64,000 nt of DNA from IMG/VR virus record IMGVR_UViG_3300033066_002315, positions 21-64,020 of that record, one strand, 5' to 3'. Positions 11,113-45,959 of the stretch are shown piece by piece. The position numbers and the translations under genes were made by a program. The DNA comes from a virus. Lineage: Duplodnaviria > Caudoviricetes. The notes under the pieces were generated by a model. The model saw nothing but the letters and a program-made list of their open reading frames with translations. It did not search any database and had not been told where the DNA came from. Numbering within the stretch: the first letter of the stretch is position 1; the number at the start of each line of letters is the position of its first letter.

Positions 11113-11127
11113 TACAGTCGCCGCATG
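11113..11127 (+). promoter_or_regulatory. TANNNT-N6-ATG element (TACAGT) before terL; first of 22 such elements listed in findings
   Basis: TACAGT cgccgc ATG. Confidence 0.65.
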
Positions 11128-12561
11128 GGTATGCCCGCCCAGAGCCAGACGCGCGCCGACATCGAGCGCGAGATCGCGAGGCGCCGAGAGCAGCTCGGCG
11201 CGGCCGCGAACGATTGGGTTCCGAATCCCGGACCACAGACGCGCTTCCTCCAATCGTCCGCCGACGAGGCGCTCTACGGTGGAGCCGCCGGCGGTTCGAA
11301 GACCGAGAGCCTGCTCGTCGCCGCGCTTCGCTACGTCCACGTACCAGGCTACCGCGCGATCCTCTTCCGCCGACAGGGGACGCAGCTCACCAAGCAGTTG
11401 ATCCCGCGCGCGCGCCTGCTCTATCGCCGGCTCTTCCCGCGCGGCCAGGTGCGGTGGCACGCGACGGATCGCCGCTTCACGTTCCCCAGCGGCGCGACAA
11501 TCGAGTTCGGCGCCGCCGACAAAGAGCAACACATCGAGCGCTGGCAGGGCTTCGAGTTCGCGTTCATCGCGTTCGATGAGCTCACCGCGTTCACCCGCTA
11601 CCAGTACACGTTCATGTTTTCGCGGCTCCGCTCGACGGTCGCGGGACTCCCGACGCGAATGCGCGCGGGCACGAACCCGGGCGGCCCTGGACATGAATGG
11701 GTCCTGCGGCGCTGGGCTCCATGGCTCTATCCGCTCGGCCACATCGAGTACAACGGCCAGCGCGCGCGCGATGGTGAGCCGCTCTGGATGGAGCCCATCG
11801 AGGACAGCGACGAGGAGCGCATCGCAGAGCCGGGCACGCCGACGGCGATCTCGCGCACGTTCTTCTCGTCGCGCGTGTCGGACACGCCGCAGCTCGGCGA
11901 GGAGTACGAACGCAAGAACCTGAGCGGCCTCGACCGGCTCACGCGCAAGCGCCTGAAAGACGGCGATTGGATGGCGCGCGCCGTCGCTGGCGAGTTCTTC
12001 GAGCGCGGCTGGTTCGAGATCGTCAACGCGGGGCCGCGCGATGTCCTGCTCCGCCTGCGATATTGGGATCTCGCCGGCACGAGCGAGAAACACGCGACGC
12101 CCTCGACGGCCTACACGGCGGGGCTGCTCATGAGCGTCTCGCACGATGGCGTGCTGTTCATCGAGCACGTGCTCCGCGCGCAGCTCTCGCCGGGTGAGGT
12201 CGAGCAGACGATCGAGCGCACGCTCGCCGCCGACCGCATCGAAGACGACGGGGTGATCACGATCATCGAGCGCGACCCCGCGCAGAGCGGGAAGTTTCAG
12301 GCCTGGTACTTCGGGCGCAAGCTCGGGATCAAGGCGATCCCACCGAACGGCAACAAGCTCTCTCGCGCGTTGATCGCGAGCGCCCAGGCCGAGGCGGGCA
12401 ACATCAAGATCGTGCGCGGCTTGGGATCGGTGAGATGGATCGAGCCCTTCCTTCGGGAGGCCGAGAGCTTCCCCGAGGACAAGAAAGACCAGATCGACGC
12501 GCTCTCTGGAGCCGTGCGCTTCGCGCTGCTCAAGATCGCGAAGATGCTTGGGCGCCGTTGA
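11125..12561 (+). CDS. terL: Terminase large subunit
   Basis: YGGAAGGSKT Walker A, AFIAFDELT Walker B, TNPGGPGHEWV, nuclease motifs YWDLA and KDQIDA. Confidence 0.95.
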   Translation: MGMPAQSQTRADIEREIARRREQLGAAANDWVPNPGPQTRFLQSSADEALYGGAAGGSKTESLLVAALRYVHVPGYRAILFRRQGTQLTKQLIPRARLLYRRLFPRGQVRWHATDRRFTFPSGATIEFGAADKEQHIERWQGFEFAFIAFDELTAFTRYQYTFMFSRLRSTVAGLPTRMRAGTNPGGPGHEWVLRRWAPWLYPLGHIEYNGQRARDGEPLWMEPIEDSDEERIAEPGTPTAISRTFFSSRVSDTPQLGEEYERKNLSGLDRLTRKRLKDGDWMARAVAGEFFERGWFEIVNAGPRDVLLRLRYWDLAGTSEKHATPSTAYTAGLLMSVSHDGVLFIEHVLRAQLSPGEVEQTIERTLAADRIEDDGVITIIERDPAQSGKFQAWYFGRKLGIKAIPPNGNKLSRALIASAQAEAGNIKIVRGLGSVRWIEPFLREAESFPEDKKDQIDALSGAVRFALLKIAKMLGRR

Positions 12562-12592
12562 CGGCGTGGGCGCGCCGCACGAACTTGCGTCG

Positions 12593-12865
12593 ATGATCGA
12601 CGTGCTCGCCGACGACGCGACCCGAGCGCTTGCTGCGGCCGGCTACGCGGAGACGCTCACCACCTCGACGCCGATCGGCGAGCTGGCCGCGCTCGTTGCA
12701 GTCGTAGCAGAGGGCGCCGCCGGCGACGCGACCGAGGAGGATCTGCGCGCGCTCGATGCGCTCGCGGTCCTCTGGCACGCGCGGCGCGGCGGCGCGGTGG
12801 CGCCGCGCGAGGCGGCGTTCCTGCTCGGCGTGTATGGCGCTGGAGCGGAGCGCGCCGAGGCGTAA
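12593..12865 (+). CDS. Hypothetical protein
   Basis: ORF between terL and portal; start uncertain. Confidence 0.5.
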   Translation: MIDVLADDATRALAAAGYAETLTTSTPIGELAALVAVVAEGAAGDATEEDLRALDALAVLWHARRGGAVAPREAAFLLGVYGAGAERAEA

Positions 12866-12906
12866 GCCGCATCGACGTCGGGCGGCGCTGATATACGCTG
12901 CCGACC

Positions 12907-15900
12907 ATGCGCCGCTTCGGTCCCCAGCCCGCCCTCTCCTCCGGTCCGATCTTCGCTGCGTCCTCGCGCGCGCCGTCGCCTTCGATCGCGCTGCACGAAC
13001 GATCCAGCCCGCGCAGCGCGCGGCGGCGTGCCTTCCTCGCTGCAGCTCGCACGGCCTCGACGCCGCGCGAGCTGCTCGACGTGAACGCCCTCACGCGCAA
13101 CCTCTTCACCGATCGACTGCCGTTCGCCGAGAAGTTCCGACCCTTCTACGGGCGGATCGACATGGCATTGATCGCCGAGGTGCTGCGCATGTCGGACGTC
13201 GGGATCATGACCCCGATCGCCGACCTCGAGCGGGAGACGCTCGCGCTCGATCCGCACGCGAGCATGCTCCCGCAAAAACGGTTCGGGGTGCTCTCCGCGC
13301 TCGAGCCCCAGGTCGACGCCGCGAAGGGCGACGGGCTCGACCCGAAGCTCGCCGAGGAGATCGCTGCCGACGTGCGAAGCATGATCTCCAAGATCCGCGG
13401 CCTGCGCGCCGCGATCTACGACATCGCGTGGTCGCTCTTCGATGGGCGCGGGGCGCTGGAGATCGATTGGGCGCACGTCGGGGGTAAGTACCCTTATCGT
13501 CCTGTCGCGCTCGACTGGATTCACCCGCGCCGGATCGCGTTCGGCCCCGATCGCGAGCTGCGGGTTATCGACACGTTCACGAACGGGCGCGGATGGTGGT
13601 CGCCGAACGGGATCGCGCTGCGCGACTATCCGGGGAAGTTCGTCACATGGATGCCGCGGTACTTCTGCGACTACCCGGAGCGAGAGGGCTTGGGCCGGCG
13701 CTCGCTGTACTGGTGTCTCTTCAAACGCTTCTCCAACCGAATGCGGATGGTGCTCACCGAGCTCTTCGCGATCCCGTGGCGCACGATCGAGTTCGATCAA
13801 GACACCGAGTTCAGCACCACCTCATGGGAGGACATGGAGGCAGCCGAGGACGCAGCCGAGGCGCTCGGCGGGGAGAACAGCGTCGCGATCCCACCGGGCG
13901 GGCGCCTCCGCGTGCAATGGCCGGGCGAGAACAGCGGGCAGCTCTTCGAGCTGACCCGCACCGGCGTCAACGACGAGCTGTCGAAGCTCTGGGTCCTCAA
14001 CACCGGGACGAGCGACATGAAGGCCGACGCGCTCGGCGGGGGCGCCACGGCGGTGCACAAGGGCGAGCAGAACATCGCGCAGGACCGCGACGCGTTCGGA
14101 ATCGCCGAGGTCTTCCAAGTCGATCTCGTCGACGTCTACGTGTTGCTCAATCGCGGTCCCGCGTTCCTCGACTACTCGCCCACGATCACGCTCGTCACGA
14201 AGGACGTCAAAGACCGGGCGAAGGCGCAAACCATCTTGGAGAACGCGATCAAGATGGGCGTGCCCGTTTCGCTCGGCGCCTACTACGAAGAGACCGGCGT
14301 CCCTCACCCCGACGAAGGCGAGCCCGTGATCGTCGCGAGCCCCGACGCCATGGGAAACATGATCGGTCACATCGTGTTCCCCGAGAGCTGGGACGGTCCG
14401 CGGATCGGCGAGCCGCCTGCATCGGATGAGGGCGAGGCCAAGTCCGAGGAGCCGATCTACGCCTACCACATCGAGCAAAACATCGTGGCTCGTGACGAGG
14501 CTCGCGCGAAGATGAACCTGCCACCGCTGCCCGGCGGCGCCGGCTCGGTCGAGACGCTGGCGGCCAACCTCCAAGCCGCGGCCGAAGCCGCGAAGCAGGG
14601 CGGCGCACCGCCCGGCGCGCCCGGCGCGCCAGGCGCGCCGCATCGTTCGTTTCCACCACGCGCCGCACCCGCTGCGGACAAGCCGAAGGCGCCGCAGGAT
14701 TCACCGGCAACGAGCGACGAAGAAGCGACGCGCCGTCTCGCGGAGCGCGCGCGCGTCCTCGCCGCGGCGCACCACGCGCCGACGGTCAACGGCACCGAGG
14801 CCGAGCTGGTCTCGCGCGGCGTGCGCGAGGGCGTCCGGCACACCGCGGTCTGGGCGCAGTCCCTCGTCGACGCGATCGATGATGAAGGACACGATCATCT
14901 CGCCGCGCACCGCGCGCTCACCAAAGCCGCCGACGCGTTCAACCTCGAAGGCTTCGCGCGCGCGATCGAGCGCACCACGATCCTCTCTCTCGCGCTCGGC
15001 GCGCTCGACAGCGCCTGGGAGAGCGCGGCCGACGCTACGCCGCAGCAGGCGAGCTTCCGCGAGGCGCGCGGCGACGTGCTCATCCTCGCGAGCCCCCTCG
15101 GTGCGCTCGAGATCCCGCAGTTCACCACCAAGCCGTTCGCGGAGGCGATCTCAAGCTTCCTCGGGAAGAACATCGTCTCGCGCCGCTTCTTCGATCGCCT
15201 CACTGCCGAGGCGAAGCGCCGATCGTTCACCGTCGCTGGGCTCGCCCAAAAGCGCATGCTCGTGGTCGCGCACGAGGAGCTGACGAAGGCCATCACCGAG
15301 GGGATCGATCTGCGCGAGTTCCGCGCGCGGCTCGCGCAGCGCTTCGAGTCGAACGGCTGGACGCCGCTCAACAAGTCGCACGTCGAGACCGTCTTCCGGA
15401 CCCAGGTGCAAGGCGCGTATGCGAGCGGGCGCGACGTCCAACAACGGCAGCCCGAGGTGCTCGAGGCCCGACCGTACTGGCAGATCCAAGGCGTGAAGGA
15501 CGATCGCACGCGCGACGCGCACGCGGCCGCGCACGGCAAGGTGCTTCACTACTCCGATCCCTTCTGGACGCGCGCGCCGCTCCCCTGGGGTTTCAACGAG
15601 CGTTGTCGCCGCGTGACGCGCTCGGAGGCGGACCTCGCGCGCCTCGGCCTCCAGGTCACGAACGGCGCGATGCTCAGCGGCCTCCCCGACGAGGGCTTCG
15701 ACGCGGGCGCCGGCGGCCTCTTCGAGCGCGGGCGCGCGAGCTTCGTCGAGCTCTGCGTCTATCTCCCCGCGATCTGGCTCGACGCGGCCAGCGATGGGGC
15801 CGCGCGCGGCCCCAAACCGGAACCCGCGGCGGCGCCGGCCGCGCACGATGGGGCCGCGCGCGGCCCCATCGTGCGGATCTACGCGGACTCGCTGGTTGTC

Positions 15901-16743: not shown

Positions 16744-16782
16744 GACGCCCCGGCTTGTCCCCCCGAGCCGGGGCGTCGCTTT
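16744..16782 (+). terminator. Rho-independent terminator
   Basis: 12-bp stem GACGCCCCGGCT/AGCCGGGGCGTC followed by GCTTTT. Confidence 0.75.
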
Positions 16783-16871
16783 TGGCCGGCGGCCATCGCG
16801 TTCGGATCGCGCCATGCCCCTCTTGACTTCCGTCGATTCCCGGAAGCCCGGCGATCGGCTACGTTCTGCCC

Positions 16872-17405
16872 ATGGCTCTCTCCACCATCCCCGTTCGCGC
16901 CGCCAACTTTCTCACCTCCGCGCTGTATCGGGCGCTCGTCGTTCTCCGCGGCGAGGTCGAGACTCGCCTCGCTGCCGCGGAGGCCTCGATCGCCGCGAGC
17001 CTCCCGGTCTCGAAAAAGACGGTCACCATCGGCCACGCCGATCTCACCGATGCAGTGGCCGGCGAGGCGCAGGCGATCAACCTCTCCACCGCGCTGCCTT
17101 CCAACGCGCGGATCGTCGGCACCGACATGCGCTCGTACACCCCGTTCACCGGCGGCTCGGTGTCCGCGGTCACGTGCGACATCGGCACGAGCGGAGACGT
17201 CGACGCGCTGATCGACGGCGCCGATCTCCAGACGGCGGCGGTCGACGGCGGCCCGGCGACGATGCCCAAGGGCGTCCGGCCCAACAAGACGTTCGCCTCC
17301 GGCGGGCAGCTCCTCGCGACCTTCTACCCGGACGGGGGCCACGCGCTCGACGCGCTCACCGCGGGCAGCATCGTGATCGACGTGCTCTACGTCGTGCTCG
17401 CGTAA
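16872..17405 (+). CDS. Putative head decoration or structural protein
   Basis: Head-module position; beta-rich; TACGTT-N6-ATG. Confidence 0.6.
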   Translation: MALSTIPVRAANFLTSALYRALVVLRGEVETRLAAAEASIAASLPVSKKTVTIGHADLTDAVAGEAQAINLSTALPSNARIVGTDMRSYTPFTGGSVSAVTCDIGTSGDVDALIDGADLQTAAVDGGPATMPKGVRPNKTFASGGQLLATFYPDGGHALDALTAGSIVIDVLYVVLA

Positions 17406-22054: not shown

Positions 22055-22097
22055 CCTCCTCCTCGCTCGCGCGCCTTGATCGGCTTACGATCGGCGC

Positions 22098-22586
22098 ATG
22101 AGCATCCCCCTCCTCATCGAAGACGCAGATCTCGAGCTGGCGATCGGCGCGGAGACCTTCGCGCAGCTCTGCGACCACGCGGGGCGCGGCGAAGCGCAGC
22201 CGCGGATCGTGCAGCACATCCTTCGCGTGGGCAGCGACGAGGCCGCCAACCTCCTCGCGCCAGGCTTCTCCACCGACGAGATCATCGCGCTCGTGCGTCG
22301 GGACGCGGCCTTGCGCCACAAGATCGCGCTCATCGGGATCGGCGTGGCCGGCGTCGCGCGACGCGAGTTCGCCGACGCGCAGGGGAAGTTCTTGTATGCC
22401 GACGCCGCGCAGAAGGCGCGGGCCGAGATCTCGGCCGTCGGCACGAAGAAGGAGCGCTCGGCCGCAGAGCAGCAGAACGGCTCGATCAACCGGCGCGTCG
22501 GGCCGCGCGTCGGGCAGCGCGTGAATCGCCCGCGCTACTTCGTCTTCGCCGACGCGCGCGGCACGCGTGGGAGCGGGGGCTACTGA
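22098..22586 (+). CDS. Head-tail adaptor (Mu gp36/DUF1320-like)
   Basis: DLELAIGAETFAQLCD pattern, size and synteny. Confidence 0.7.
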   Translation: MSIPLLIEDADLELAIGAETFAQLCDHAGRGEAQPRIVQHILRVGSDEAANLLAPGFSTDEIIALVRRDAALRHKIALIGIGVAGVARREFADAQGKFLYADAAQKARAEISAVGTKKERSAAEQQNGSINRRVGPRVGQRVNRPRYFVFADARGTRGSGGY

Positions 22587-23970: not shown

Positions 23971-23989
23971 GCGCGGGTATGCTCTGGCG

Positions 23990-24349
23990 ATGCCCAACCT
24001 CTACGTCACTCCCGTGCCTGGCAAGGTCGTCTCTCGCTTTGGGTCAGCCACGCGAACCTCGAACAACGAGCCGATCGGCTACCAGCGCAACCGGGAAACC
24101 GGCGCCTTCGACCTCATCGATCCGGAGATCGTCGTGATGATCCCGGAAGCCGAGGCGACGCGCTTCGCCGCTCAGTACAACACCGCGATCCGCGTCGAGG
24201 GCGCGCTCATCGTGCGCAAGGAAGAAGACTTCAAAGCGTGGCGCGCGAAGGTCGTGGCGCGCCAAGAGCCGGCGCGCGCTGCGGCTCCGCCGGCTCCGCC
24301 TCCGGTGGAGGTCGCGGAGCTGGCGACCGCGGAGCTGGCGCCCGCGTAG
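23990..24349 (+). CDS. Small pre-sheath protein (Mu gp38/DUF2635-like)
   Basis: LYVTPVPGKVV start; position immediately before sheath. Confidence 0.55.
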   Translation: MPNLYVTPVPGKVVSRFGSATRTSNNEPIGYQRNRETGAFDLIDPEIVVMIPEAEATRFAAQYNTAIRVEGALIVRKEEDFKAWRAKVVARQEPARAAAPPAPPPVEVAELATAELAPA

Positions 24350-24403
24350 CGCCGCTCCGGCGGCTCGATGCGCTCGCAGGGGGATCGTGTACGATCCTCG
24401 CCC

Positions 24404-25957
24404 ATGACCACGCTCCCCCTGGCTATGAGCCCCACGCAGCGCACGCCCGGCGTTGCGGTCCTCATCGACTTTCTCGCCGAGGCCACCTCGGCGGGATCCG
24501 CCTCGCTCCGAGGCCTCATCATCGCGCCCAAGGCGTCCACCGGATCGATCACCAGCGACACGGAGATCGTGCAAGGGCTCGCCGGCGCGGCCGGTGCGTC
24601 GACGTACCTCGGCGCCGGCTCTCCTGGGCACCTCGCCGCGAAAGCGCTCTTCCGCGAGCTGCCCCTCGCGAACATCGATCTGATCTCGCCGACGCCGAGC
24701 ACGGGTGCTTTCGCCACCGGCACCTTCACCTTCGACGATTCGCAGGGGTCGAGCACCGACATCACAGCAGCGCGGACCGTCACCGCGACGATCGCGGGCC
24801 GCGAGATCTCGATCCAGTGGCTCGTCGGCGAGACGCGCGAGCAAGCCGCGACGAAGCTGGTGACCGCCATCAGCGCGGCCTCGGATGATCTCCCCGTGTC
24901 AGCCGCGAACGCCGGCGGGACGAGCGCCGTCTGCACGATCACGAGCAAGGTCAAGGGCACGTGGGGCAACGACATCCTGACTTACGTCGATGTCTCCGGC
25001 GGCACGGGCGGGAGCGTGGTCGCGGGCGCCGCGGCGATGGCGAGCGGCGCGGGCGAGATGGACATCACCACCGCGCTCACGAAGATCATCAACACCGAGT
25101 ACGACTTCATCCTGCTCGTCACCTCGAACGCTGACGCGGTGAGCGCGAGCACGAGCAACCCCTCGCGTCTCAAGAGCTATCTCGACACGTACGGCGAAGG
25201 GCAACCCGCGCTCCTCCAGCAAGGGATCTACGCCTGCACCTCGACGCTCTCCGGGCTGAAGGCGGCGACGGCGGTGATCAACTACGGCCGGACCCAGGTG
25301 CTCCTCGCGCGCACGTGCCAGTCGCTCCCGTGCGAGTGGGCCGCGGCCGAGATGGGCGCGCGCATGCGCGAGCGCGCGAAGTACGCGGTCAAGAACAGGA
25401 TCCACATGGTGTACCGCGCGACCCTCTACGGTCCGCGCGATCACGTCACCAGCGACCTCTCCGCCGTCGAGATCGAGGACGCTTTGCAGCACGGCATCAC
25501 CCCCATCACGTTCAATTCGACGTTCGTCCCGTGGCCCGAGCGCCCGATCACCACCTACTGGAAGGACACGAGCGCGGCCCCCGACGATCGGATCCTCGAC
25601 GTCACGCGCGTCGACGGCATGTTCACCGTCGCGAAGGATCTCCGCAGCACGATCCCCGCGCAGTTCCAAGGCAAGAGCCTCTCGCCCGATCTCCCCACCG
25701 GCGACGATCAGCTCCCGCCCGATGTCGTCGAGATCGGCACCGTGCGCGCCTTCGTGGTCGCGCGCTGCCGTCTCTGGCAGGGCCGCGGCGTCCTCCGCAA
25801 AGACAAGCTCGACGAGGCGATCGGCACCCGCGACGAGCCTGGCGAGCTCCAGGTCGTGATCAACGAGACCGACGCAACCCAGGTCGACATGCTGATCCCG
25901 CTGGCGACGATCCCCCCGCTCGCGAAGTTCAGCATGTACTTCACGCAGGCCGCGTAG
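24404..25957 (+). CDS. Tail sheath protein (Mu gpL-like)
   Basis: PGVAVLIDF, YLGAGSPGHL, KVKGTWGNDI, GITPI, ITTY motifs; 517 aa. Confidence 0.9.
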   Translation: MTTLPLAMSPTQRTPGVAVLIDFLAEATSAGSASLRGLIIAPKASTGSITSDTEIVQGLAGAAGASTYLGAGSPGHLAAKALFRELPLANIDLISPTPSTGAFATGTFTFDDSQGSSTDITAARTVTATIAGREISIQWLVGETREQAATKLVTAISAASDDLPVSAANAGGTSAVCTITSKVKGTWGNDILTYVDVSGGTGGSVVAGAAAMASGAGEMDITTALTKIINTEYDFILLVTSNADAVSASTSNPSRLKSYLDTYGEGQPALLQQGIYACTSTLSGLKAATAVINYGRTQVLLARTCQSLPCEWAAAEMGARMRERAKYAVKNRIHMVYRATLYGPRDHVTSDLSAVEIEDALQHGITPITFNSTFVPWPERPITTYWKDTSAAPDDRILDVTRVDGMFTVAKDLRSTIPAQFQGKSLSPDLPTGDDQLPPDVVEIGTVRAFVVARCRLWQGRGVLRKDKLDEAIGTRDEPGELQVVINETDATQVDMLIPLATIPPLAKFSMYFTQAA

Positions 25958-26377: not shown

Positions 26378-26416
26378 GCCTCGCTCGACTTCGGCGCGCC
26401 GCGTATGCTCGGCGCC

Positions 26417-27321: not shown

Positions 27322-27330
27322 GATCTCGGC

Positions 27331-29427: not shown

Positions 29428-29454
29428 CCGGCGCACCGCGGTAGGATCGCCGGC

Positions 29455-31568: not shown

Positions 31569-31586
31569 TCGCGCTACCCTCGCCGC

Positions 31587-32366
31587 ATGGCGATCTCGCT
31601 CTTCGATCGGATCTTCGCCTTCGTCGACATCGCGGCCTCGTCGCTCGGTGCAGGAGGCTCGGGCTCGGTGCTCGTGAACCTCCGCGCGCTCAACGCCAGC
31701 GACACAGACGTGGACGCCGAGCAGGTGACCGGCGCCGAGCTCTACGGCGTGACCGGCTTCCTCTTCCGCCCGCGGGATCAGGACGTCGACGGCGCGGCCG
31801 AGGGCATCGCCGCTCGCCTCGACGCTGGGATGATCGGCGTGGCCTCCCGCGATCTCCGGGTCTGGAAGGCGCGCGGCGCGCTCGACAAGGGATCGATCTC
31901 GATGGCCGGCTACTCCGGCGCGCACATCACGATCCTCGACGCGCGCGCGGGCACCACCAAGGGGCGAACCGAGACGCGGCAGCCGACGCAATTGAACAGC
32001 ACCGCGCCGCACGTGCTCGCCCTCGACGGTGCGATCGGCGCCGAGGTGATCACCGTGCATCACGCGCTCGGGCACGAGATCACCATGGACCAGACCGGCA
32101 AGGTCACGATCTCCGGGCAGGCCGGCGTGACCACGCTCCAGCTCACCGACGCGGGCGGCGTGGTGATCACGAAGGGCGGCGGCGCGCAGCCCGTCGTGCT
32201 CGAGACGCTCCTCGTCTCCCTCCTCAACCAGATCACGGCCGCGCTCGCGCAGGCGAAAGCCGCAGGCGCGACACCATCGGCAGCAGCGATCGCCGCCGGC
32301 CTCTCCGCGATCAACGTGCCCACCGTGGGCACCGTGGGCAGCTCGGCCCTCTCGGCGAGCCCGTAG
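31587..32366 (+). CDS. Baseplate spike protein (Mu gp45/gpV-like)
   Basis: OB-fold-like N-half, beta-helix-like C-half; synteny. Confidence 0.7.
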   Translation: MAISLFDRIFAFVDIAASSLGAGGSGSVLVNLRALNASDTDVDAEQVTGAELYGVTGFLFRPRDQDVDGAAEGIAARLDAGMIGVASRDLRVWKARGALDKGSISMAGYSGAHITILDARAGTTKGRTETRQPTQLNSTAPHVLALDGAIGAEVITVHHALGHEITMDQTGKVTISGQAGVTTLQLTDAGGVVITKGGGAQPVVLETLLVSLLNQITAALAQAKAAGATPSAAAIAAGLSAINVPTVGTVGSSALSASP

Positions 32367-32464
32367 AGGAAAGCCCCGGAGCGCATCACGTGCCCGTACG
32401 CGATGCGCCCCAGGGCCGAGGACGAACGTAGCCGCGATCGCAGCGTGCGCGCTACCCTCCTCGG

Positions 32465-32917
32465 GTGACCCTCGGCATCCTGAGCAAACCGGCCGTCGGC
32501 TCCCCGCTCTCGTTGTGGGAGCCTCCGGATCCGACGGTGGTCCTCTCCGCGAGCTACCTCGTCGACGCGATCGATCCTCTGACCGGCGAGGTACAGAGCC
32601 TCACAACCGGGATGGACCCCACCGACGCGGCTCTGCTCACGCAGCTCCGCACCGTGCGCGGCAGCGGCGCGTCGGTGCTCGAAGATGGGCACAACCTCGA
32701 CAGGATCGAGAACAACAACGGCGACGCGAAGGCCCGGATCGTCTTCGAACTGCAGCGGTTGGTGCAGCCCTTCCTCGACCGACGCGAGATCCAGCTTGAG
32801 CGCCCGATCGCAGATAGCGTCGACGCGGGCGAGGCCGAGGGCGACACCGCAGCGGCCGAGATCCTGTACGTGAATCTGAGAACCCGGGAGAAGCGCTCGA
32901 TCCCGGTCACGAGGTAG
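32465..32917 (+). CDS. Baseplate wedge protein (Mu gp46/gp25-like)
   Basis: Size and synteny; LQRLVQPFLD pattern. Confidence 0.6.
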   Translation: MTLGILSKPAVGSPLSLWEPPDPTVVLSASYLVDAIDPLTGEVQSLTTGMDPTDAALLTQLRTVRGSGASVLEDGHNLDRIENNNGDAKARIVFELQRLVQPFLDRREIQLERPIADSVDAGEAEGDTAAAEILYVNLRTREKRSIPVTR

Positions 32918-34506: not shown

Positions 34507-34537
34507 CCGCTCGCCGCGATCGCGGTATGCTCCGCGC

Positions 34538-35002
34538 ATGTCCGGCTTCCCCAACTACCCCTCCCGCGATGCGTTCGGCCCGACGATGGACCTGACGCGA
34601 GAGATCAACCCGCGGAGGGACATCGGGGGCCAGCGCTTCAACCTCACATGGTGGCAGCTCGCGGGGTGCGGTCTCATGGTCCCGCGCGCGTGGGTACTCG
34701 TCGCAGCGAACGGCACGCGCATCGCGTCGGCAGAGAGCTGGAATCCAAACCAGGAGAGCTCGCTCCATCCGACGACGGCGAAGATCGGGACCGGCGCATA
34801 CACGATCACCTTCGCGGCGTCGGCGCCGGACGAAGAGGGCGTGACGCGCCTGCTCGGCCTGCGCGCCGTCGGCGTCTTCGTGCAGTCGACCACGCTGGGC
34901 GATCACGGCGTCGGCTCGGTCTCGGGCGGCAACGTCGCCACCATCGCGACCGGATCCGGCACGACCGCCGGCGATCAGTCGTTCCTCGCCGTGCTCTGGT
35001 GA
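34538..35002 (+). CDS. Hypothetical baseplate-region protein
   Basis: ORF with TATGCT-N6-ATG. Confidence 0.65.
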   Translation: MSGFPNYPSRDAFGPTMDLTREINPRRDIGGQRFNLTWWQLAGCGLMVPRAWVLVAANGTRIASAESWNPNQESSLHPTTAKIGTGAYTITFAASAPDEEGVTRLLGLRAVGVFVQSTTLGDHGVGSVSGGNVATIATGSGTTAGDQSFLAVLW

Positions 35003-35737: not shown

Positions 35738-35775
35738 TGTAGCGCCCTCGCGCGCGCTCGGCCTATGCTTCCCCC

Positions 35776-37059
35776 GTGGCGAACTTCACGCTGATTCGGG
35801 CGCTGGGCTGGGCACTCAAGAGCCGTCTCTGGAATTACGAGATCCAAGAGATCGACACCCGCATCACCAAGACCATCAACGCAGCCGACGGGAGCTCGCA
35901 CGCGCCATCGAGCCAGATCGTCGTCCATGGCAGCGGCATGGAGATCACACCGCTCGAGAGCACCGATGCGGATCTCGACATCGGCAGCGGGCACGCCGTG
36001 GATTTCCTCTCCGGCTCGGAGCTGATCCTTCGCAGCGGCGCGGCCCTCTCGGCGAGGACTGGATCTACCGTCGGCCTCTACGGCGCCACCGCCGTCGCAG
36101 ATGGCGGGGCGGGCGGCACGAACGGGACGTTGTATATCGGCTTCGCCGTCCTCGGTGATGGGCATCTGATCGTCACGCAGTACGGCGACCTCACCGTGCA
36201 GAGCGGGGCCGCGGTCGCCTTCGACGCTGGCTCAGCGGTGAGCGATCGCGGCACGTGGACGATCGGGCAGGACTCCGCATGGTCGCGCAGCGGCGCGAGC
36301 GGGCACCTCGCGACCGAGACCTTCGGCGACTACTCGACGCTCACGTTCTCTGGCTCTGGCGCGAACGGCGGGCAGCTCATCATCGCGGCGAACGGCAAGC
36401 TCAACCTGAACCTCGGCGCGACGAGCACGTGGGCGAACGGATCGACCATCACCGACAACGGGGCGGCGCTCACGAAGACCGCGGGCACGTGGGCCTTCAA
36501 CGGCAGCTCGATCATTTCGCTGGCGGGCACGAGCAAGATCGCCGTCGGGAGCACCGCGACGATCGACTTCACCAGCGGGGCCGAGCTGACCGGCACGATG
36601 CTGATCCCGTCGTCGGCGACGTTCAACCTGCACGCAGATCTGAACCGCCAGGGCGCCGACATCCCCTTCGGCTCCACCGCGTATCGCGCGCATCGTGTAG
36701 AGCTGACGCTGCCGGCCGGTGGGGGATCGTTCACTCCGACGACTTCGGAGACGTACTACCTTCCGACGATCCCCTCCGGCGGAAGCGACATCGTGTTGAC
36801 GCTCGGAACGCCGAGCAAGCCGATCGACGTCTACTTCTATTCGCGAAACGTCGGCGACGCGCTCGCCCTCGGGCACGACTACATCATCAAGGCGAACAGC
36901 GGCCCCACCGAGCTCGCCAGGTTCAGGAACTTCTACTACTCCCCTGGCGTGCTCGGCTTCCGCTACACCGGCTCGACGTGGATCGTGATCTGCGCGATGG
37001 CAGACGGCGCGGAATACAACAACTCCACGGGCGGCACGGGAACGTTTGTGTGGGGCTAG
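35776..37059 (+). CDS. Tail fibre or spike protein
   Basis: Follows baseplate; Gly/Thr-rich beta-solenoid-like repeats. Confidence 0.65.
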   Translation: MANFTLIRALGWALKSRLWNYEIQEIDTRITKTINAADGSSHAPSSQIVVHGSGMEITPLESTDADLDIGSGHAVDFLSGSELILRSGAALSARTGSTVGLYGATAVADGGAGGTNGTLYIGFAVLGDGHLIVTQYGDLTVQSGAAVAFDAGSAVSDRGTWTIGQDSAWSRSGASGHLATETFGDYSTLTFSGSGANGGQLIIAANGKLNLNLGATSTWANGSTITDNGAALTKTAGTWAFNGSSIISLAGTSKIAVGSTATIDFTSGAELTGTMLIPSSATFNLHADLNRQGADIPFGSTAYRAHRVELTLPAGGGSFTPTTSETYYLPTIPSGGSDIVLTLGTPSKPIDVYFYSRNVGDALALGHDYIIKANSGPTELARFRNFYYSPGVLGFRYTGSTWIVICAMADGAEYNNSTGGTGTFVWG

Positions 37060-37310
37060 TGCCCACCGTCCGCGCACGAGCAGACCAGCGACGAAGTTCC
37101 GGACGAGCGGCACGTGCCGATGCACGAGCCGTCGTCGCTCATGCACTCGCTGCCCTCTGCTGCATTGCTGTCCGAGCAGAAGATCGGCGCGTCGCAGGCT
37201 GCTCCGCCGGGGTCGGAAAGACTGCACTCGTACGCGTCGCAGCCCACGAGCCCACCCACAGCCGACGACGCTAGTAGAACGAAAACGCCAACGATTCTAT
37301 ACGCATGCAT
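37056..37310 (-). CDS. Cys-rich lipoprotein (moron)
   Basis: Hydrophobic signal with LVG-C lipobox; 7 further Cys; SD GGAGG; antisense to tail genes. Confidence 0.6.
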   Translation of the reverse strand: MHAYRIVGVFVLLASSAVGGLVGCDAYECSLSDPGGAACDAPIFCSDSNAAEGSECMSDDGSCIGTCRSSGTSSLVCSCADGGH

Positions 37311-37431
37311 GATGATGCCCTCCGCGGTGCAACATGGCGTTCTTTGCGTCGCGTGTCGAGAGTGAACGTGCGTTGCCCTCACCCGCGAAGCGATCTGGTC
37401 GATCCGCCGATACACGCGTAGGGTTCGATCC

Positions 37432-37827
37432 ATGCCGGCGTTCATGATCGAAGCGGCGAACATCTCCGGAGGGCAAGAGATCGCGTGGACCGATCCGCCT
37501 GGCTCGTCGCTCCCGTCGCGGCTCAATCCGAACCCCCAGCATCCGCACAGCTACCGCCTCGTCACCGTGCCCGGAACGCTGGTGATCCAGGCGCGCGTTG
37601 ACGGCGTACTCGCCCCGCTCGATGCGAATCCCGTGATGGCCGGGCGCACCTTCAGCGCGACGATCGCGCGTTGGAGCGGGACCTTCCCGCCCGTCGTGAC
37701 GCAGACCGCAGGGCAGTCGAGCGAGATCACCGTGCAGCTCGGCGCCGACAACCTCGGTCATCACCTGCTCCTGGTGACGCTCTCCGACAACGGCGGCTCG
37801 ATCGGCGTGCCCTTCGACGGCACGTGA
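37432..37827 (+). CDS. Hypothetical beta-rich (Ig-like?) protein
   Basis: TAGGGT-N7-ATG; beta-strand pattern. Confidence 0.6.
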   Translation: MPAFMIEAANISGGQEIAWTDPPGSSLPSRLNPNPQHPHSYRLVTVPGTLVIQARVDGVLAPLDANPVMAGRTFSATIARWSGTFPPVVTQTAGQSSEITVQLGADNLGHHLLLVTLSDNGGSIGVPFDGT

Positions 37828-37853
37828 TCGCCCGCGCGATGTAGACTCAGCGC

Positions 37854-38210
37854 GTGGCGAAGCTCGAAGACGTCTGCCCCTCCTACGTCGGCGCGAGGCT
37901 CATCGACTTGCAGCTCGTGAAGGCGCTCGAGACGCCGCTCGCCCGTCTCCCCGTGCTCATCAGGATCGCCACGCTGGAGGAAGCGAGCACCATCGGGCTC
38001 ATGCTCCCGCTCGAGCTGCGGGTCACCGCGCCGAGTCCATCAGGCTTCATCCGCCACGTCTTCACGCGGATCGTGCCCACGCAGTTCGCCATCACCCCGC
38101 GCGAGGGAGGCAATCACCTCGTGTCGCTGCGCGAACTCGCTCATAACAGGTGGTGCGGGTCGCTCGTGATTGCCGTGCGCGGTGACGCACTCACGCTCGC
38201 CGACGCCTGA
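37854..38210 (+). CDS. Hypothetical beta-rich (Ig-like?) protein
   Basis: TAGACT-N6-GTG. Confidence 0.6.
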   Translation: MAKLEDVCPSYVGARLIDLQLVKALETPLARLPVLIRIATLEEASTIGLMLPLELRVTAPSPSGFIRHVFTRIVPTQFAITPREGGNHLVSLRELAHNRWCGSLVIAVRGDALTLADA

Positions 38211-38223
38211 TAGACTCGCGCCC

Positions 38224-39792
38224 ATGGCATCGAGCGGGGCGAAATTCACGGTAGAGGCGACGGCATCTTCCCCGCGCGGGTACGACGCGACCGCGGGGCA
38301 AGTGCTCGACCTTACGCTCGAGACCAACCCCGCGGTGGATGTGTGGAGCTGCGTCTACTCGGTCGCACGCGCGAACCCTGGCGCTACGGCTCCGACCTTC
38401 TCGAACGTGGGCGTCGCCGAGCCGGTGAACGCGACCGTGACGTGCACGATCCCCGCCGAGGTCGGCGCGTGGATCATCCGCTGCATGACGAACGGCGGCG
38501 AGGTTGTGGTGCGCGCGGACGGCACCAAAGACTACTCGGTCAACGTGTACGATCGCGCCGTGGTCGTCCGCACGACGGGCGGCAATCTGCGGTACTTCGT
38601 ACTCGGCGAGACGGTCGAATACAGCGAAGAGGGTTGGGTCGAAGACCTGAACGCGCTCGTCGACGCGATCGCTGGCGGCGCGGTGATCGCGCTCTCGAAC
38701 GCCACGCCGCAGGCCGCGAGCGCTGCCGCCGGGTCCGCGGGGGCCTCGACCAGCGCGAGCCGCGCCGATCACGTGCACCAGGTCTCGACCGGCACGCCCA
38801 CCGACGTAGGCACCGCGAACGCTGCGGGCGCGGCAACATCGCTCGCGCGCAGCGACCACGTGCATGCCCTCCACTTCGCGCCGGTGCAGGCGGCGCTCGC
38901 CGCGGCCTCCGGAGCGATCGCGGTGAACGGTCAGAAGATCAGCGGGCTCGCCTCGCCGACGGCCGGCACGAGCGAAGCGGCGACGGCGACCTACGCCGAG
39001 GGGGTCGTCACCTTCGCGCGGGTCAACGCCGCGCTGCTCACCGCGAACGCGTCGATCGACATCAACGCGCAGGGCTTCGTCGGCGTGGCCTTCGTGTCCT
39101 TCGGCGCGGCCGTCAACGTCGCGAGCGCGGGGCTGCTTCGGTCGAGTGGAGCCGCGCAAACGCTCCTCGCGGCGACGAGCATCGCCTCGCCGTCCAACGA
39201 TCTCGAGGTGCTCCGCGTCGATGGGGCCGACAACGTGCTGATGGGCGGCAGCTACGCGCTCGCGCTCAAGTTCGTCTCGCAGACGAGCTTCAACGTGAAG
39301 AGCAACGACCTCGCCGATCAGCTCGTCGTCGACCACGGCAACGAGCTGGTGAGTGTCACGAACTACACCGTCCAGATCCCGGCGCTCGTCATCAGCCAGC
39401 CCACGGCTCCCACGATCGTTATCGAGACGAGCGGCGGTGGAGCGGCGGTCAGCACGCACGTCGCTTACACGTGGGGCTACCAGACGCCGAACACGAGTAG
39501 CTTCGAGCTGGTGGCGATCCCGTTGCCCGGCGCGAGCCGTTGCTATGCGACGCTCACGATCACCGCGACGAACGGCAGCGTGACCACGAGCATCAAGAGG
39601 TCTTTCGTCCTGACGATCGGTCCCGGCGCGGCGGTCGCGGTCGCGGAGGACGTGGCGATCAACGCCGACATCCCCCAGGCGACCTTCAACTACAACGGCT
39701 GGTTCGTCACCGGCTCGCCGTCGAACCTCGTCTATGCCGTCGACGGCCCCACCAACTCGCGGTGGAAGGCGCACTGCGAGTTCTTCTACTGA
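38224..39792 (+). CDS. Tail fibre-like protein
   Basis: ASRADHVH/ARSDHVH repeats typical of fibres; Ala/Thr-rich. Confidence 0.7.
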   Translation: MASSGAKFTVEATASSPRGYDATAGQVLDLTLETNPAVDVWSCVYSVARANPGATAPTFSNVGVAEPVNATVTCTIPAEVGAWIIRCMTNGGEVVVRADGTKDYSVNVYDRAVVVRTTGGNLRYFVLGETVEYSEEGWVEDLNALVDAIAGGAVIALSNATPQAASAAAGSAGASTSASRADHVHQVSTGTPTDVGTANAAGAATSLARSDHVHALHFAPVQAALAAASGAIAVNGQKISGLASPTAGTSEAATATYAEGVVTFARVNAALLTANASIDINAQGFVGVAFVSFGAAVNVASAGLLRSSGAAQTLLAATSIASPSNDLEVLRVDGADNVLMGGSYALALKFVSQTSFNVKSNDLADQLVVDHGNELVSVTNYTVQIPALVISQPTAPTIVIETSGGGAAVSTHVAYTWGYQTPNTSSFELVAIPLPGASRCYATLTITATNGSVTTSIKRSFVLTIGPGAAVAVAEDVAINADIPQATFNYNGWFVTGSPSNLVYAVDGPTNSRWKAHCEFFY

Positions 39793-39856: not shown

Positions 39857-40192
39857 ATGCTGAAACGCGTCCTAGTTCTCGCTTTTTCTCTCGGTCTGCT
39901 CCCGCTCTTCGCCGCGTGCGGGGATCACAACAGCTCTGGCGCCGGCGGCGCCGACCCCAACGCCTGCGCGAGCGGCGTCGCGGAATGCCCGGCCGGCTCA
40001 TTCATCATGTGCGGCGGCATGGAGTCGCTGGTCCCGTGCTGCGTCGGCGGCGAGAAGGGCCAGGCCTGCGCGACTGATGCAGGCGTGAGCACGCACGCGT
40101 GCCCGGCCACGTGCGCGACGTGCGGAGACGGACTACCGCTCTGCGCGGTCGACCTCGCGACACGCGCCGTGACGTGTCTCTGCAACCCCTGA
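39857..40192 (+). CDS. Cys-rich lipoprotein
   Basis: MLKR + hydrophobic + FAA-C lipobox; 12 further Cys. Confidence 0.7.
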   Translation: MLKRVLVLAFSLGLLPLFAACGDHNSSGAGGADPNACASGVAECPAGSFIMCGGMESLVPCCVGGEKGQACATDAGVSTHACPATCATCGDGLPLCAVDLATRAVTCLCNP

Positions 40193-40230
40193 ACGACATC
40201 CGCGCGCCGCGCGCGTGGTAGCCTTCCTCC

Positions 40231-40389
40231 ATGACCATCCTCGGCGTGCTCGTCGAGATCGCGCTCGCGCAAGACCCGCCCGAGGAGCTCGCGCTCGCAC
40301 GCGCTCCACGTACGGCTATCGGCTTCGCGCCAGATGCCGAGGCCGCGCTCGACGTCACCGACGCCTACGAGGAGCTCGCGCTCGCATGA
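40231..40389 (+). CDS. Small protein (52 aa) with duplicated EELALA
   Basis: Not in the ORF track; TAGCCT-N6-ATG; stop overlaps next start (ATGA). Confidence 0.55.
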   Translation: MTILGVLVEIALAQDPPEELALARAPRTAIGFAPDAEAALDVTDAYEELALA

Positions 40390-40712: not shown

Positions 40713-40744
40713 TCGCAGCGGCGCGCGCGTGGTAGCCTCGCGGC

Positions 40745-41125
40745 ATGCGCTCTGCCCGACGTCTCCTCTCGCTTCTGATCCTCGTCGTCGGCTTCGTCCT
40801 CGGCCGCGTGCTCGCCGCGGCCGCTCTCGGCGTGACCGTCACCGGGTGCGGCATCCCGCCGTCGCAGATCGCCGGCGCCGTCGCCGGCCCGGCGTGCTCG
40901 CTCGTCACCGTGCTCTCGGGCGAACAGATCGCAGGCGTCGTGTGCAACGGCTTCGCCGAGGCCCTCCGCGCCGTGCTCGCGCGCACCGCGGGCGCGGCCG
41001 GTCCCGCGTCCTGCAGGCTCGTGCCGCTCTATGACGGCGACACGCAGAACTTCATCTGCGAAGGCCTCCGCGAGGAGCTCCGCCAGGAGATCGCGCGCCG
41101 GAGCGTGAAGGGCTCCGCGAAGTGA
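40745..41125 (+). CDS. Membrane protein or lipoprotein
   Basis: Long hydrophobic N-terminus with VTG-C. Confidence 0.6.
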   Translation: MRSARRLLSLLILVVGFVLGRVLAAAALGVTVTGCGIPPSQIAGAVAGPACSLVTVLSGEQIAGVVCNGFAEALRAVLARTAGAAGPASCRLVPLYDGDTQNFICEGLREELRQEIARRSVKGSAK

Positions 41126-41799: not shown

Positions 41800-41805
41800 A
41801 ACTCC

Positions 41806-42106: not shown

Positions 42107-42126
42107 CGAGGCGTACGTATGCATTC

Positions 42127-43238: not shown

Positions 43239-43272
43239 GCAGCCCTCGCGCGCCCGCGGTATCCTCCTCCGC

Positions 43273-43770
43273 GTGATCGTCACCCTCACCACGCTCCCCT
43301 CGCGCGTCGTCTACCCCGGCACCACGCTCCGCGCGCGCGTGCGCTTCAGCGACGAGATCACCGACGCGGACCAGACGCCGGCCGCCGTGGTGTTCCTGCT
43401 TCGCCCCGCCTCCTCGGCCTCCTCCTCGCCGGCCGAGTACACATGGACCAACGACGATCCGGCCCCGGTCGTCTCGGGGCTCGACGCCACCGTGACGGCG
43501 ATCACGCGGACGGTGAGCGGCGGCGCGCTGGTCTTCTTCGAGGCGACGGTCGCGATCCCGAGCGACGCGACGCCGGGCACATGGACCTTCGCCTGGCGCG
43601 CGCTCGACGACGACAGCAACCAGCTCGCCACGCAGTGGGGCGCGGTCGACGTCGAGCCAGAGGCCTCGGGCCCGCTCCAACCCTCGCCCGTCGCGCCTCC
43701 GCCGAACCCCGACGTGATCGGCGCCGACGTCTATGCGTACGGCTACCCGCCCGGCTACTGGTACCGATAG
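43273..43770 (+). CDS. BppU/Ig-like domain protein
   Basis: PGTWTFAWRA strand motif; TATCCT-N7-GTG. Confidence 0.55.
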   Translation: MIVTLTTLPSRVVYPGTTLRARVRFSDEITDADQTPAAVVFLLRPASSASSSPAEYTWTNDDPAPVVSGLDATVTAITRTVSGGALVFFEATVAIPSDATPGTWTFAWRALDDDSNQLATQWGAVDVEPEASGPLQPSPVAPPPNPDVIGADVYAYGYPPGYWYR

Positions 43771-43803
43771 ACCGGCACGCTCTGCGGCGGCTACGCTCCG
43801 CGC

Positions 43804-44391
43804 ATGAGTTTCTGGACGTTCGTCCGCAACCTCGCCGCGACCCCCACCCCACCGCTCTCCAGGAACGGCGGGCCGGTCGCTGTCGATCAATACGGCTCGC
43901 AGGTGGTGATCTACTCGCCCGAGGCGCTCACCGCGCTCAGCGCCGCGGGCGGGCTCCCATCGCGCAGCACGCTCTCGGCGGTGCTCTGCACGTGGCAGAT
44001 CTCCGTCACCACCGGCGCGGCGGCGCTGGTGCCCGCGTGGGCGAGCGCCACCGCCTACAAGATCGGTCAGGTGGTCACCAACGACACGCTGAAGATGTAT
44101 CGGTGCATCACCGCCGGCACGAGCGCGGGGAGCGGCGGGCCGACGGGCACGAACAGCAACATCACCGACAACACCGCGCATTGGGCCTACGTGAGCAGCT
44201 TCGGCAACGGCGTGCGCGTGACCAACACGCACGCGAGCGAGAGCCTCTACGTCGGCTCTTCGGGCCTCACGACGAGCGTGGGATCGCTCATCCCCTCGGG
44301 GCTCTGGAAGGACTACCCGATCGGCGACCTGACGCAGCTCTACGTCATCGGATCTGGCTCGCTCACCGCGACCGTCGAGGCCTGTCCGTGA
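43804..44391 (+). CDS. Structural protein with CBM5/12-like module
   Basis: WASATAYKIGQVV...YRC...HWAY. Confidence 0.6.
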   Translation: MSFWTFVRNLAATPTPPLSRNGGPVAVDQYGSQVVIYSPEALTALSAAGGLPSRSTLSAVLCTWQISVTTGAAALVPAWASATAYKIGQVVTNDTLKMYRCITAGTSAGSGGPTGTNSNITDNTAHWAYVSSFGNGVRVTNTHASESLYVGSSGLTTSVGSLIPSGLWKDYPIGDLTQLYVIGSGSLTATVEACP

Positions 44392-45554
44392 GATCGCCGG
44401 CGCAGAACTTCGGGCGGATGGGCGGCCAACCTCCCAAGCGACCGGCCCCGCTCTATCTCGACTTCTCCTCCGCGAGCCCTGGGCCCGCGACCGGGCTCCT
44501 CGGGCCGCTCTCCTTCGCGCGCGCGAGCGCCGCCAACGCGCAGAGCGGCGCGGCGGTGATGCTCGTCGACGGCGTGAGCGGCACGAGCATCGGAACCAAC
44601 GTCCCGCGGATCGTGAACTTCGGCACCGGCGCCGGGCTGATCGTCGAGAAGCCCGCCGCAAACCTCGTCGCCCTCCCGCGCGCGTTCGGGTCGTGGCCGA
44701 GCGCTGGCGCTGGGGTGACGACCTATACGAACAACGCGGTCGCGGGCCCGGACGGCCAGAGCTTCGCGGACCGGCTACAGGTCGCAAGCAACGCCTACGC
44801 GCGGTACCAGACGATCGCCGTCGGCGCGCCGCCGCAGTGGACCACCGGATCGCTCTGGATGCGGGGCGCGGCCGGCGGCGAGCCGTACCAAATGGACATC
44901 TTCCATGGGGTCGGCAACTTCGACGTTGCCGGCACGCTCCTCGCCACGTGGGCGCGCTACGCGTGGACCCAAAACATGGCGGGGACCGGCGGATTCGTCC
45001 CCGGCGACGGCCGCTTCGAGGGCAACGCGGGCTTCCCGCAAGCACTCGATTTCTACGCCGACATGGGGCAGGCCGAGGCGAGCCCGTACGCGACCACCTG
45101 GGCAGCCTCGACGCGCGCGGGAGAGCGCCTCTATCACCCGACCGGATCGGCGCTGGTGCGCGGCGGGAAGCTCACGATCGACATCACCTTCATCCCCGAA
45201 TACGCCTCCTCGGTCATCACCGCGGCCAAGAGGCTTTGGACCGACGCGGCCGACGCGACCACCTACCTCGAGATCGACCCGGCGAGCTTGAAGCTCAAGG
45301 CCTCCGTGGTGGGGAGCGCCGTGCTGCTCGGCACCGCGATCCCGGCGTGGAGCGCGTTCGACACGCTGCGGATCCAGGCGGTTGTCGGCAACGGCGCGCC
45401 CTCGGGCTTCGCGGTGCTCAACGGCGGCGCGCAACAGAGCCTCGGCACCGGCTCGGCGCACGCGGCGATCGCGCTCGCGGGCGCGCTGGACATCGCGTGC
45501 AGCGGCACCTCGTCGCAGCTCGACGCGGCGATCAAGCGGCTGCGATTCCTGTAG
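44388..45554 (+). CDS. Head-spike or lectin (LamG-like) fibre protein
   Basis: SFARAS...VPRI...GLIVEK..ANL pattern; aromatic-rich beta-sandwich. Confidence 0.55.
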   Translation: MRSPAQNFGRMGGQPPKRPAPLYLDFSSASPGPATGLLGPLSFARASAANAQSGAAVMLVDGVSGTSIGTNVPRIVNFGTGAGLIVEKPAANLVALPRAFGSWPSAGAGVTTYTNNAVAGPDGQSFADRLQVASNAYARYQTIAVGAPPQWTTGSLWMRGAAGGEPYQMDIFHGVGNFDVAGTLLATWARYAWTQNMAGTGGFVPGDGRFEGNAGFPQALDFYADMGQAEASPYATTWAASTRAGERLYHPTGSALVRGGKLTIDITFIPEYASSVITAAKRLWTDAADATTYLEIDPASLKLKASVVGSAVLLGTAIPAWSAFDTLRIQAVVGNGAPSGFAVLNGGAQQSLGTGSAHAAIALAGALDIACSGTSSQLDAAIKRLRFL

Positions 45555-45563
45555 ACTGGCCGC

Positions 45564-45959
45564 ATGCCCAACATCAATTTGACCGTGAAGAGCATCCAGG
45601 ATGTCTACGCCGCCGCCAACGACGAGGGGATCCCCGTCGGCTGGGTGTGGCAGGACCCCGAGGCCTCGTACAACTACGAGCTCTCGCCCGTGTACCTGGC
45701 GAAGCCCATGCCGCGGAGAGACCCCATTTTGATCCAGATGGGCGACGGGAACGTCTGGTGCCCGGATGCCTACCCGGCGGCCAACGTCCCCGGCTCGCCG
45801 CCGACGGGGCCGCAGCTCGACGGACAGCAGACCGCGTGGACCGTCACCAACGACGACATCACGCCCAACCAGTCGACGACGCTCTCGGTCTCGCCGGGCG
45901 TCTACCTCCCGAACCCGGACGCGCACGTGACCGTGAGCAACGGGGTGATGAGCTGGTGA
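45564..45959 (+). CDS. Hypothetical protein
   Basis: TAGACT-N6-ATG; last late gene. Confidence 0.6.
   Translation: MPNINLTVKSIQDVYAAANDEGIPVGWVWQDPEASYNYELSPVYLAKPMPRRDPILIQMGDGNVWCPDAYPAANVPGSPPTGPQLDGQQTAWTVTNDDITPNQSTTLSVSPGVYLPNPDAHVTVSNGVMSW

Follow-up and report, generated by a model that had tools for sequence, protein, structure and literature searches.

TANNNT boxes at the start codons of virion genes in a high-GC phage point to a late module probably built from many leaderless transcription units

We analyzed 64,000 nucleotides (nt) of an uncultured phage, IMG/VR virus record IMGVR_UViG_3300033066_002315 (64,020 bp, 69% G+C; the stretch analyzed, positions 21 to 64,020, is called the window below) and found that most of its virion genes that do not overlap a preceding stop codon carry the hexamer TANNNT 6 to 8 nt before the start codon. 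These boxes are probably -10-only promoters of the host sigma-A type, with transcription starting at the initiation codon itself. Each TANNNT would be a -10 element without a -35 element, read by the host RNA polymerase with its primary sigma factor, and because the box lies at positions -12 to -7, the first transcribed base would be the A or G of the ATG or GTG that stands 6 to 7 nt downstream. The virion module would then consist of about 21 short transcription units in a row, with one leaderless gene at the head of each and, behind it, zero to four genes that either have a Shine-Dalgarno (SD) sequence or overlap the preceding stop.

A gene caller self-trained on codon usage gave about 77 genes in the window. 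A virion module of the myovirus type occupies the + strand from 11.1 to 46 kb, with terminase, portal/Mu-F fusion, protease, major capsid, sheath, tape measure, and baseplate hub and wedge genes, and its genes resemble those of Mu (portal_Mu and Mu F domains). Counts that use curated starts cover 37 genes of this late block and 36 others, 73 overall. The box is carried by 21 of the 37 late genes (57%) and by 24 of all 73. Twenty-eight late genes do not overlap the previous stop: 21 are box-led, 6 are SD-led (protease, decoration gene, major capsid, gene 21446, tube, and wedge), and 1 is neither. An earlier note on this DNA, made from its letters, had claimed a box before nearly every uncoupled late gene, which comes down to three quarters; the 22 hexamers that it listed were all present exactly as given, with their spacers and start codons. 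Two boxes beyond that list precede early genes of the - strand, whose starts are at 4926 and 8054.

To avoid a circular choice of start codons, we also ran a motif-blind scan, in which every ATG, GTG, and TTG near the onset of coding potential was scored for each late gene and TANNNT was tabulated at spacers of 0 to 25 nt. The hexamer was met 13, 5, and 1 times at spacers of 6, 7, and 8 nt and at most twice at any other spacer, so that 19 matches at spacers 6 to 8 stand against about 0.26 per other spacer (Poisson P value ~4 × 10−20); the 22 matches at fixed spacing had been called far beyond chance in the earlier note, and so they are. Among those 22 boxes, the spacer is 6 nt in 15, 7 nt in 6, and 8 nt in 1. 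The hexamer is otherwise scarce: the 64 kb hold 50 copies on the + strand and 41 on the - strand versus about 231 to 242 expected from independent bases, and 22 of the 50 + strand copies sit 6 to 8 nt ahead of a gene start. The shares of about 14% that the earlier note had assumed for A and for T were slightly low (measured, 15.8% and 15.1%).

In the alignment of the 22 hexamers, only T-12, A-11, and T-7 are invariant (22 of 22 by construction), and the middle bases are GC-rich and variable. Around the box, G is preferred at -13 (14 of 22) and -14 (13 of 22), C at -6 and at -1 (18 of 22), and a purine at +1. The CGCGG or CGTGG that had been noticed before many boxes is exact in 6 of the 22, and only the preference for G just before the box is general. 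The position matrix upstream of the 22 boxes contained no -35-like element, as had been stated before, and no conserved upstream position; k-mer enrichment of the 40 nt upstream gave no shared box either, only words containing upstream stop codons. An extended -10 class was not kept, since of the TG at -15/-14, the T is present in only 4 of 22. GATCG, a recurrent upstream word by eye, was dropped because GATC is over-represented genome-wide. As a separate observation, GATC occurs 769 times in coding sequence versus 427 ± 16 in codon-order shuffles and 845 times in the window versus about 182 for independent bases, and the relatives described below are 2- to 3-fold above the independent-base expectation.

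Box-led genes also stand apart in how they could engage ribosomes. An SD core was found in 2 of the 24 motif genes, both times as the TAGGAT hexamer itself, versus 38 of the 49 others (78%), and the mean energy of the duplex with the anti-SD sequence was -1.9 kcal/mol in motif genes versus -6.8 kcal/mol in the others (Mann-Whitney test, P value = 2 × 10−8), in agreement with the earlier remark that box-led genes show no SD. Folding of the first 45 nt is weaker in motif genes than in SD-led genes (P value = 0.007) and much weaker than in internal windows. Gene starts follow a grammar of three types, every start being TANNNT-led, SD-led, or overlapping the previous stop.

Relatives were found through the terminase and the sheath; they are the IMG/VR contigs G001 (58.6 kb), G002 (53.7 kb), and G003 (84.2 kb) and a partial Logan locus, L003. 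The boxes and two flanking elements are given below with their coordinates and strands, each box as hexamer, spacer, and start codon, together with its counterparts in these relatives.

11113-11127, + strand: terminase large subunit, TACAGT-6-ATG (PHROG terminase; M1 invariant in 11 homologues; L003 orthologue TATGGT-7-ATG)
12894-12909, + strand: portal/Mu-F fusion, TACGCT-7-ATG (orthologues TACCGT-6-GTG in G001 and TACCCT-7-ATG in L003)
16756-16775, + strand: terminator-like GC hairpin with T tail, after the portal fusion gene
16860-16874, + strand: first head-unit gene, TACGTT-6-ATG (then SD-led protease, decoration gene, major capsid, and gene 21446)
22086-22100, + strand: head-tail unit (gene 22098), TACGAT-6-ATG (then two coupled SD-led genes; G001 TACGCT-7-GTG, aligned from residue 1)
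23978-23992, + strand: 119-aa protein (gene 23990), TATGCT-6-ATG (G002 TAGGCT-7-ATG; SD instead in G001)
24390-24406, + strand: tail sheath, TACGAT-8-ATG (G001 TAGCCT-7-ATG, alignment from residue 1; SD in G002 and G003)
26404-26419, + strand: tail assembly chaperone, TATGCT-7-ATG (G002 TAGGCT-6-ATG)
27319-27333, + strand: tape measure protein, TAGGAT-6-GTG (TAG also closes the upstream -1 frame; G001 TAACCT-6-GTG, alignment from residue 1)
29442-29457, + strand: baseplate hub-like protein (gene 29455), TAGGAT-7-ATG (overlapping gene 30432 next)
31575-31589, + strand: baseplate-region protein, TACCCT-6-ATG (G002 TAGAAT-7-ATG)
32453-32467, + strand: gene 32465, TACCCT-6-GTG (SD-led baseplate wedge gene 32923 next; box present in all three full relatives, as TAGCCT-6, TAGGCT-7, and TAGAAT-6)
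34526-34540, + strand: gene 34538, TATGCT-6-ATG (gene 35006 next, after a 3-nt gap)
35764-35778, + strand: 427-aa tail protein (gene 35776), TATGCT-6-GTG (G001 TAGCAT-6-GTG, alignment from residue 1)
37419-37434, + strand: gene 37432, TAGGGT-7-ATG (G001 TAACCT-7-GTG; G003 TAGGCT-5-ATG)
37842-37856, + strand: late gene, TAGACT-6-GTG (G003 TACTCT-6-GTG)
38211-38226, + strand: 522-aa fibre-like protein (gene 38224), TAGACT-7-ATG (upstream TGA stop abuts the hexamer)
40219-40233, + strand: two-gene unit 40231 and 40386 (4-nt overlap), TAGCCT-6-ATG
40733-40747, + strand: lipoprotein-like 126-aa protein, TAGCCT-6-ATG (overlapping gene 41122 next)
43260-43275, + strand: late gene 43273, TATCCT-7-GTG
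43792-43806, + strand: late gene 43804, TACGCT-6-ATG (overlapping gene 44388 next)
45552-45566, + strand: last late gene, TAGACT-6-ATG (TAG is the stop codon of gene 44388-45554)
45998-46025, + strand: strong terminator-like hairpin, 12 pairs and a T run, closing the late block
55162-55176, + strand: Dps (ferritin-like), outside the late block, TACGCT-6-ATG
4924-4939, - strand: early gene 4926, TACTCT-7-ATG, inside an early promoter copy (TGTTGCG-N17-CATACT); predicted leaderless or near-leaderless
8052-8067, - strand: early gene 8054, TACTCT-7-ATG, inside an early promoter copy; predicted leaderless or near-leaderless

The source annotation of Dps gives 201 amino acids (aa) from the ATG at 55111 (55111-55716), and the box implies 180 aa from 55174. 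Three further TANNNT-N6/7-GTG sites lie inside genes, at 30121-30135 in the hub-like gene 29455 and at 38548-38562 and 39498-39513 in the fibre-like gene 38224. In each of them the GTG is in frame (chance, 1 in 27); they could be internal leaderless starts that give N-terminally shortened isoforms, or they could be chance.

G001, G002, G003, and L003 are 64 to 71% G+C and, with the same caller and histogram, show the same peak at spacers of 6 to 7 nt at lower density. A box at spacers 6 to 7 precedes 12 of 69 genes in G001, 10 of 62 in G002, and 10 of 106 in G003, and the window has the highest box-led share in the clade (24 of 73 versus 32 of 237 in the relatives, P value = 4 × 10−4). Orthologues that align from residue 1 often keep the T, A, and T with changed middle bases (portal, 22098, sheath, tape measure, 32465, 35776, and 37432). 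The start type itself switches between TANNNT-led and SD-led among the orthologues of the sheath and of genes 23990, 29455, and 34538. Since orthologues carry either a box or an SD, the two start types are interchangeable over evolutionary time; bacterial orthologues likewise interchange leaderless and SD starts (PMC3160421).

These comparisons bear on whether the boxes are a by-product of start-codon choice, of stop-codon context, or of chance in AT-poor DNA. The first starts were indeed picked by eye, and two hexamers contain the upstream TAG stop, as had been pointed out before (27319 and 45552; at 38211, a TGA abuts the box). However, the motif-blind histogram was obtained without such picking, automatic calls on four other contigs reproduce the peak, the proteins align from residue 1 with box-carrying orthologues, and SD sequences are strongly excluded. 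An artefact of chance or of start picking is effectively refuted by these four lines of evidence, and we give this explanation almost no credence.

The 21 boxes of the late block are spread over 34 kb. The block reads as about 21 units, with zero to four SD-led or overlapping genes behind each box-led gene. Terminator-like sites inside it are not above shuffle level, strong ones being present only at 16756 and 45998; these two hairpins bracket the head-to-tail part, and the roughly 19 box-led units between them are separated by no comparable terminator.

We then considered the level at which the motif acts. Inside coding regions, TANNNT occurs at 0.39 times (sense) and 0.27 times (antisense) the codon-order-shuffle expectation; for the controls, the values are about 0.8 times (TANNNC and TANNNG) and 0.71 times (TA dinucleotide). 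Avoidance on both strands argues for a DNA-level signal and fits selection against spurious -10-only promoters rather than a signal in mRNA. The alternative is a U-A...U patch in RNA that aids ribosomes on SD-less internal cistrons, or a processing site that trims transcripts to leaderless pieces. Long read-through RNAs are indeed likely, because internal terminators are not in excess in the late block, and the weakly structured 5' regions of the genes would suit such a role. On the antisense strand, however, where TANNNT is also avoided, an mRNA signal would not matter; moreover, the conserved bases are exactly the three recognized by sigma region 2, the spacing from box to start equals the distance from a -10 element to its transcription start site (TSS), and the same motif has been shown to be a promoter -10 in Deinococcus (PMC12340547). 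A role in RNA thus seems to us very improbable, and one form of it, an AU-rich translation enhancer, was ruled out by the GC-rich middle bases.

The architecture itself is already known, as the generic leaderless start signature of several high-GC phyla and from mapping in Thermus phages; what is unusual here is its density. In Deinococcus radiodurans, TANNNT precedes about one third of open reading frames by 6 to 7 bp, beside a GGAG class, binds RpoD, and is sufficient as a -10 promoter in the absence of a -35 (PMC12340547). In D. deserti, the TSS of 60% of mRNAs lies at or very near the start codon (PMC4007540), and the fraction predicted to be leaderless is 39% in Deinococcus-Thermus, 19% in Actinobacteria, 16% in delta-proteobacteria, and 13% in Acidobacteria (PMC3160421). 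The window shares with the leaderless starts of Deinococcus-Thermus and Actinobacteria the invariant T, A, and T, the position 6 to 7 bp before ATG or GTG, the lack of an SD and usually of a -35, and a second, GGAG-led class (PMC12340547, PMC4007540, PMC3160421), and its overall box-led share (33%) matches that of such hosts. It is unlike cellular genomes, in which the box marks operon heads, in that this is a phage with boxes concentrated in one tightly packed co-directional module, in which most gaps are 9 to 54 nt. In the Deinococcus phage-plasmid CP058539.1 (PGAP starts), the box is on 6 of 57 genes, all of them unit heads, and the virion genes are overlapping or SD-led; the share differs from that of the late block of the window (P value = 3.6 × 10−6). 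Because this phage-plasmid is box-poor, the density of the late module is a property of the phage studied here and not only a host habit. The earlier concern that the enrichment might be just the host's generic gene-start signature therefore holds for the overall share, which is that of leaderless-rich hosts, but not for the density in the late module.

Among phages, the closest parallels are in Thermus. Phage Lalka27a has 16 predicted late promoters, with TSSs 6 bp after the -10 observed for half of them, mostly leaderless transcripts, and no terminators between collinear late genes (bioRxiv 10.64898/2026.04.20.719267). The portion of that preprint available adds that mostly leaderless transcripts were observed earlier for phiYS40 too (bioRxiv 10.64898/2026.04.20.719267). 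[quoted passage not shown] The Lalka27a late promoters share a TAGGGT box and a conserved C at -25, pointing to a phage factor (bioRxiv 10.64898/2026.04.20.719267); in contrast, the hexamers of the window are diverse (TAC, TAG, or TAT plus variable bases), with TAGGGT in 1 of 22 and nothing conserved upstream. No sequence relationship of the window to Lalka27a or phiYS40 was found.

Most genes outside the virion module lie on the - strand and look early (MoxR/vWA, YqaJ-type exonuclease, MazG, C5 methyltransferase, Xre-type regulator, and HNH endonuclease), a DnaB helicase block lies on the + strand, and no tRNA genes were found in the window. Early genes use a different promoter family, six - strand copies of the classical -35/-10 form TGTTGCG-N17-CATAMT (more fully, GTCG(A/T)TT..TGTTGCG-N17-(TG)CATAMT), whose -35 words are at 4966, 8094, 9460, 10924, 55139, and 57927 (- strand). 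Four copies lead to SD-bearing leaders (genes 9385, 10848, 55051, and others), one leads to a short leader without an SD (gene 57880), and two put TACTCT 7 nt before an ATG (genes 4926 and 8054). The box-led class is biased toward the late block (21 of 37 late genes versus 3 of 36 others; Fisher test, P value = 1.2 × 10−5).

This bias and the different, -35-containing promoter of the early genes are what one would expect of a dedicated class of late phage promoters, read once a phage factor has changed the polymerase (a gp39-like protein displacing sigma region 4, or else an activator or sigma encoded by the phage itself) and giving an early-to-late switch. The box density, above that of the relatives and of the Deinococcus phage-plasmid control, points the same way, and the special late consensus of Lalka27a is a precedent (bioRxiv 10.64898/2026.04.20.719267). 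Another is phage P23-45, whose gp39 blocks -10/-35 promoters and spares -35-less phage promoters (PMC3950348). As in P23-45, early promoters of the window have a -35 and late ones have none, so that blocking sigma region 4 would be a simple switch (PMC3950348); unlike in the middle and late promoters of P23-45, the TG extension is absent, and no gp39-like protein was detected. Activator-dependent late promoters, such as those of Mu (C/Mor) or those with the MotA box of T4, similarly have a -10 without a usable -35 before virion genes, but the window has no conserved activator site at -35 to -50, and no protein of the Mor/C family was found. More generally, the boxes share nothing class-specific beyond TANNNT, dps and two early genes carry the same box, and searches with Pfam and PHROGs (about 50 proteins scanned) and of PDB sequences found no sigma, Mor/C, MotA/AsiA, or gp39-like protein, most early proteins being orphans. 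We consider a dedicated late class, the main rival explanation, unlikely, and the late activator that the earlier note had suggested in place of -35 recognition is not supported, on the same grounds. The further ideas of that note, that the separate promoters could set stoichiometry or bypass a shutdown of SD-dependent translation, are speculative. A bolder scheme, unlikely in our view, would place the whole temporal program in the start-site grammar: early genes would be transcribed from -35/-10 promoters, in most cases with SD leaders, and virion genes from about 21 bare -10 boxes that give leaderless mRNAs; an orphan early protein would flip the cell toward the second class, either by inactivating sigma region 4 in the manner of gp39 or by favoring leaderless translation, and box strengths would set the ratios of virion proteins.

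The 69% G+C and the motif together fit a host in the Deinococcota, Actinomycetota, or Myxococcota (table in PMC3160421). Searches for the host gave no assignment: phage isolates (tblastn) gave only distant matches, two contig scans gave nothing useful, plasmids gave only matches of about 37% identity from mixed phyla, and Dps homologues and two protein-atlas searches gave no consistent taxon. Separately, the protein encoded at 5942-6298 (- strand) matches Pfam PF25735, the mycobacteriophage L5 gp82 family (E value = 7 × 10−20), and has >300 mycobacteriophage tblastn matches of at most 42% identity, a weak actinobacterial hint from a database biased toward mycobacteriophages.

Host-read -10-only promoters are favored by the -10 geometry, the SD exclusion, the C at -1 with a purine at +1, the depletion of TANNNT elsewhere, and the conservation of T, A, and T only, and they match experimentally validated precedents (PMC12340547, PMC4007540, bioRxiv 10.64898/2026.04.20.719267). 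Several points weigh against them. Some start codons (e.g., 38224, 43273, and 43804) are placed by coding-potential onset only. Late timing has no ready explanation if an unmodified host polymerase reads the boxes. That the host's RNA polymerase can use -10-only promoters and that its ribosomes translate leaderless mRNAs is presumed. Finally, CP058539.1 uses the signal only at operon heads, and host habit alone is insufficient to account for the density. The best explanation of the sequence evidence is still the one proposed earlier, about 20 individual leaderless promoters, an architecture that is not new: we infer that these codons are where transcription begins, that the boxes are recognized by host sigma-A, and that each unit functions on its own.

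Genes for two small Cys-rich predicted lipoproteins, at 39857-40192 (+ strand) and 37056-37310 (- strand), with the lipoboxes LFAAC and LVGC, fill the two large "gaps" in the late block. Both are SD-led, have atypical codon usage, and were missed by the gene caller, and one is antisense to its late-gene neighbors. They resemble morons and might serve in superinfection exclusion.

The start grammar described here reveals no new principle. It does provide a clean set of start types for annotating this phage lineage, corrects several start codons (that of Dps, for example), and restricts the host to lineages with abundant leaderless genes. The most interesting point is the density of the boxes, well above that of related contigs and of CP058539.1. 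Because orthologues swap freely between SD and leaderless starts, the lineage is a good natural data set on the interconversion of initiation modes, and it bears on whether leaderless expression helps phages to time or balance the synthesis of their virions.

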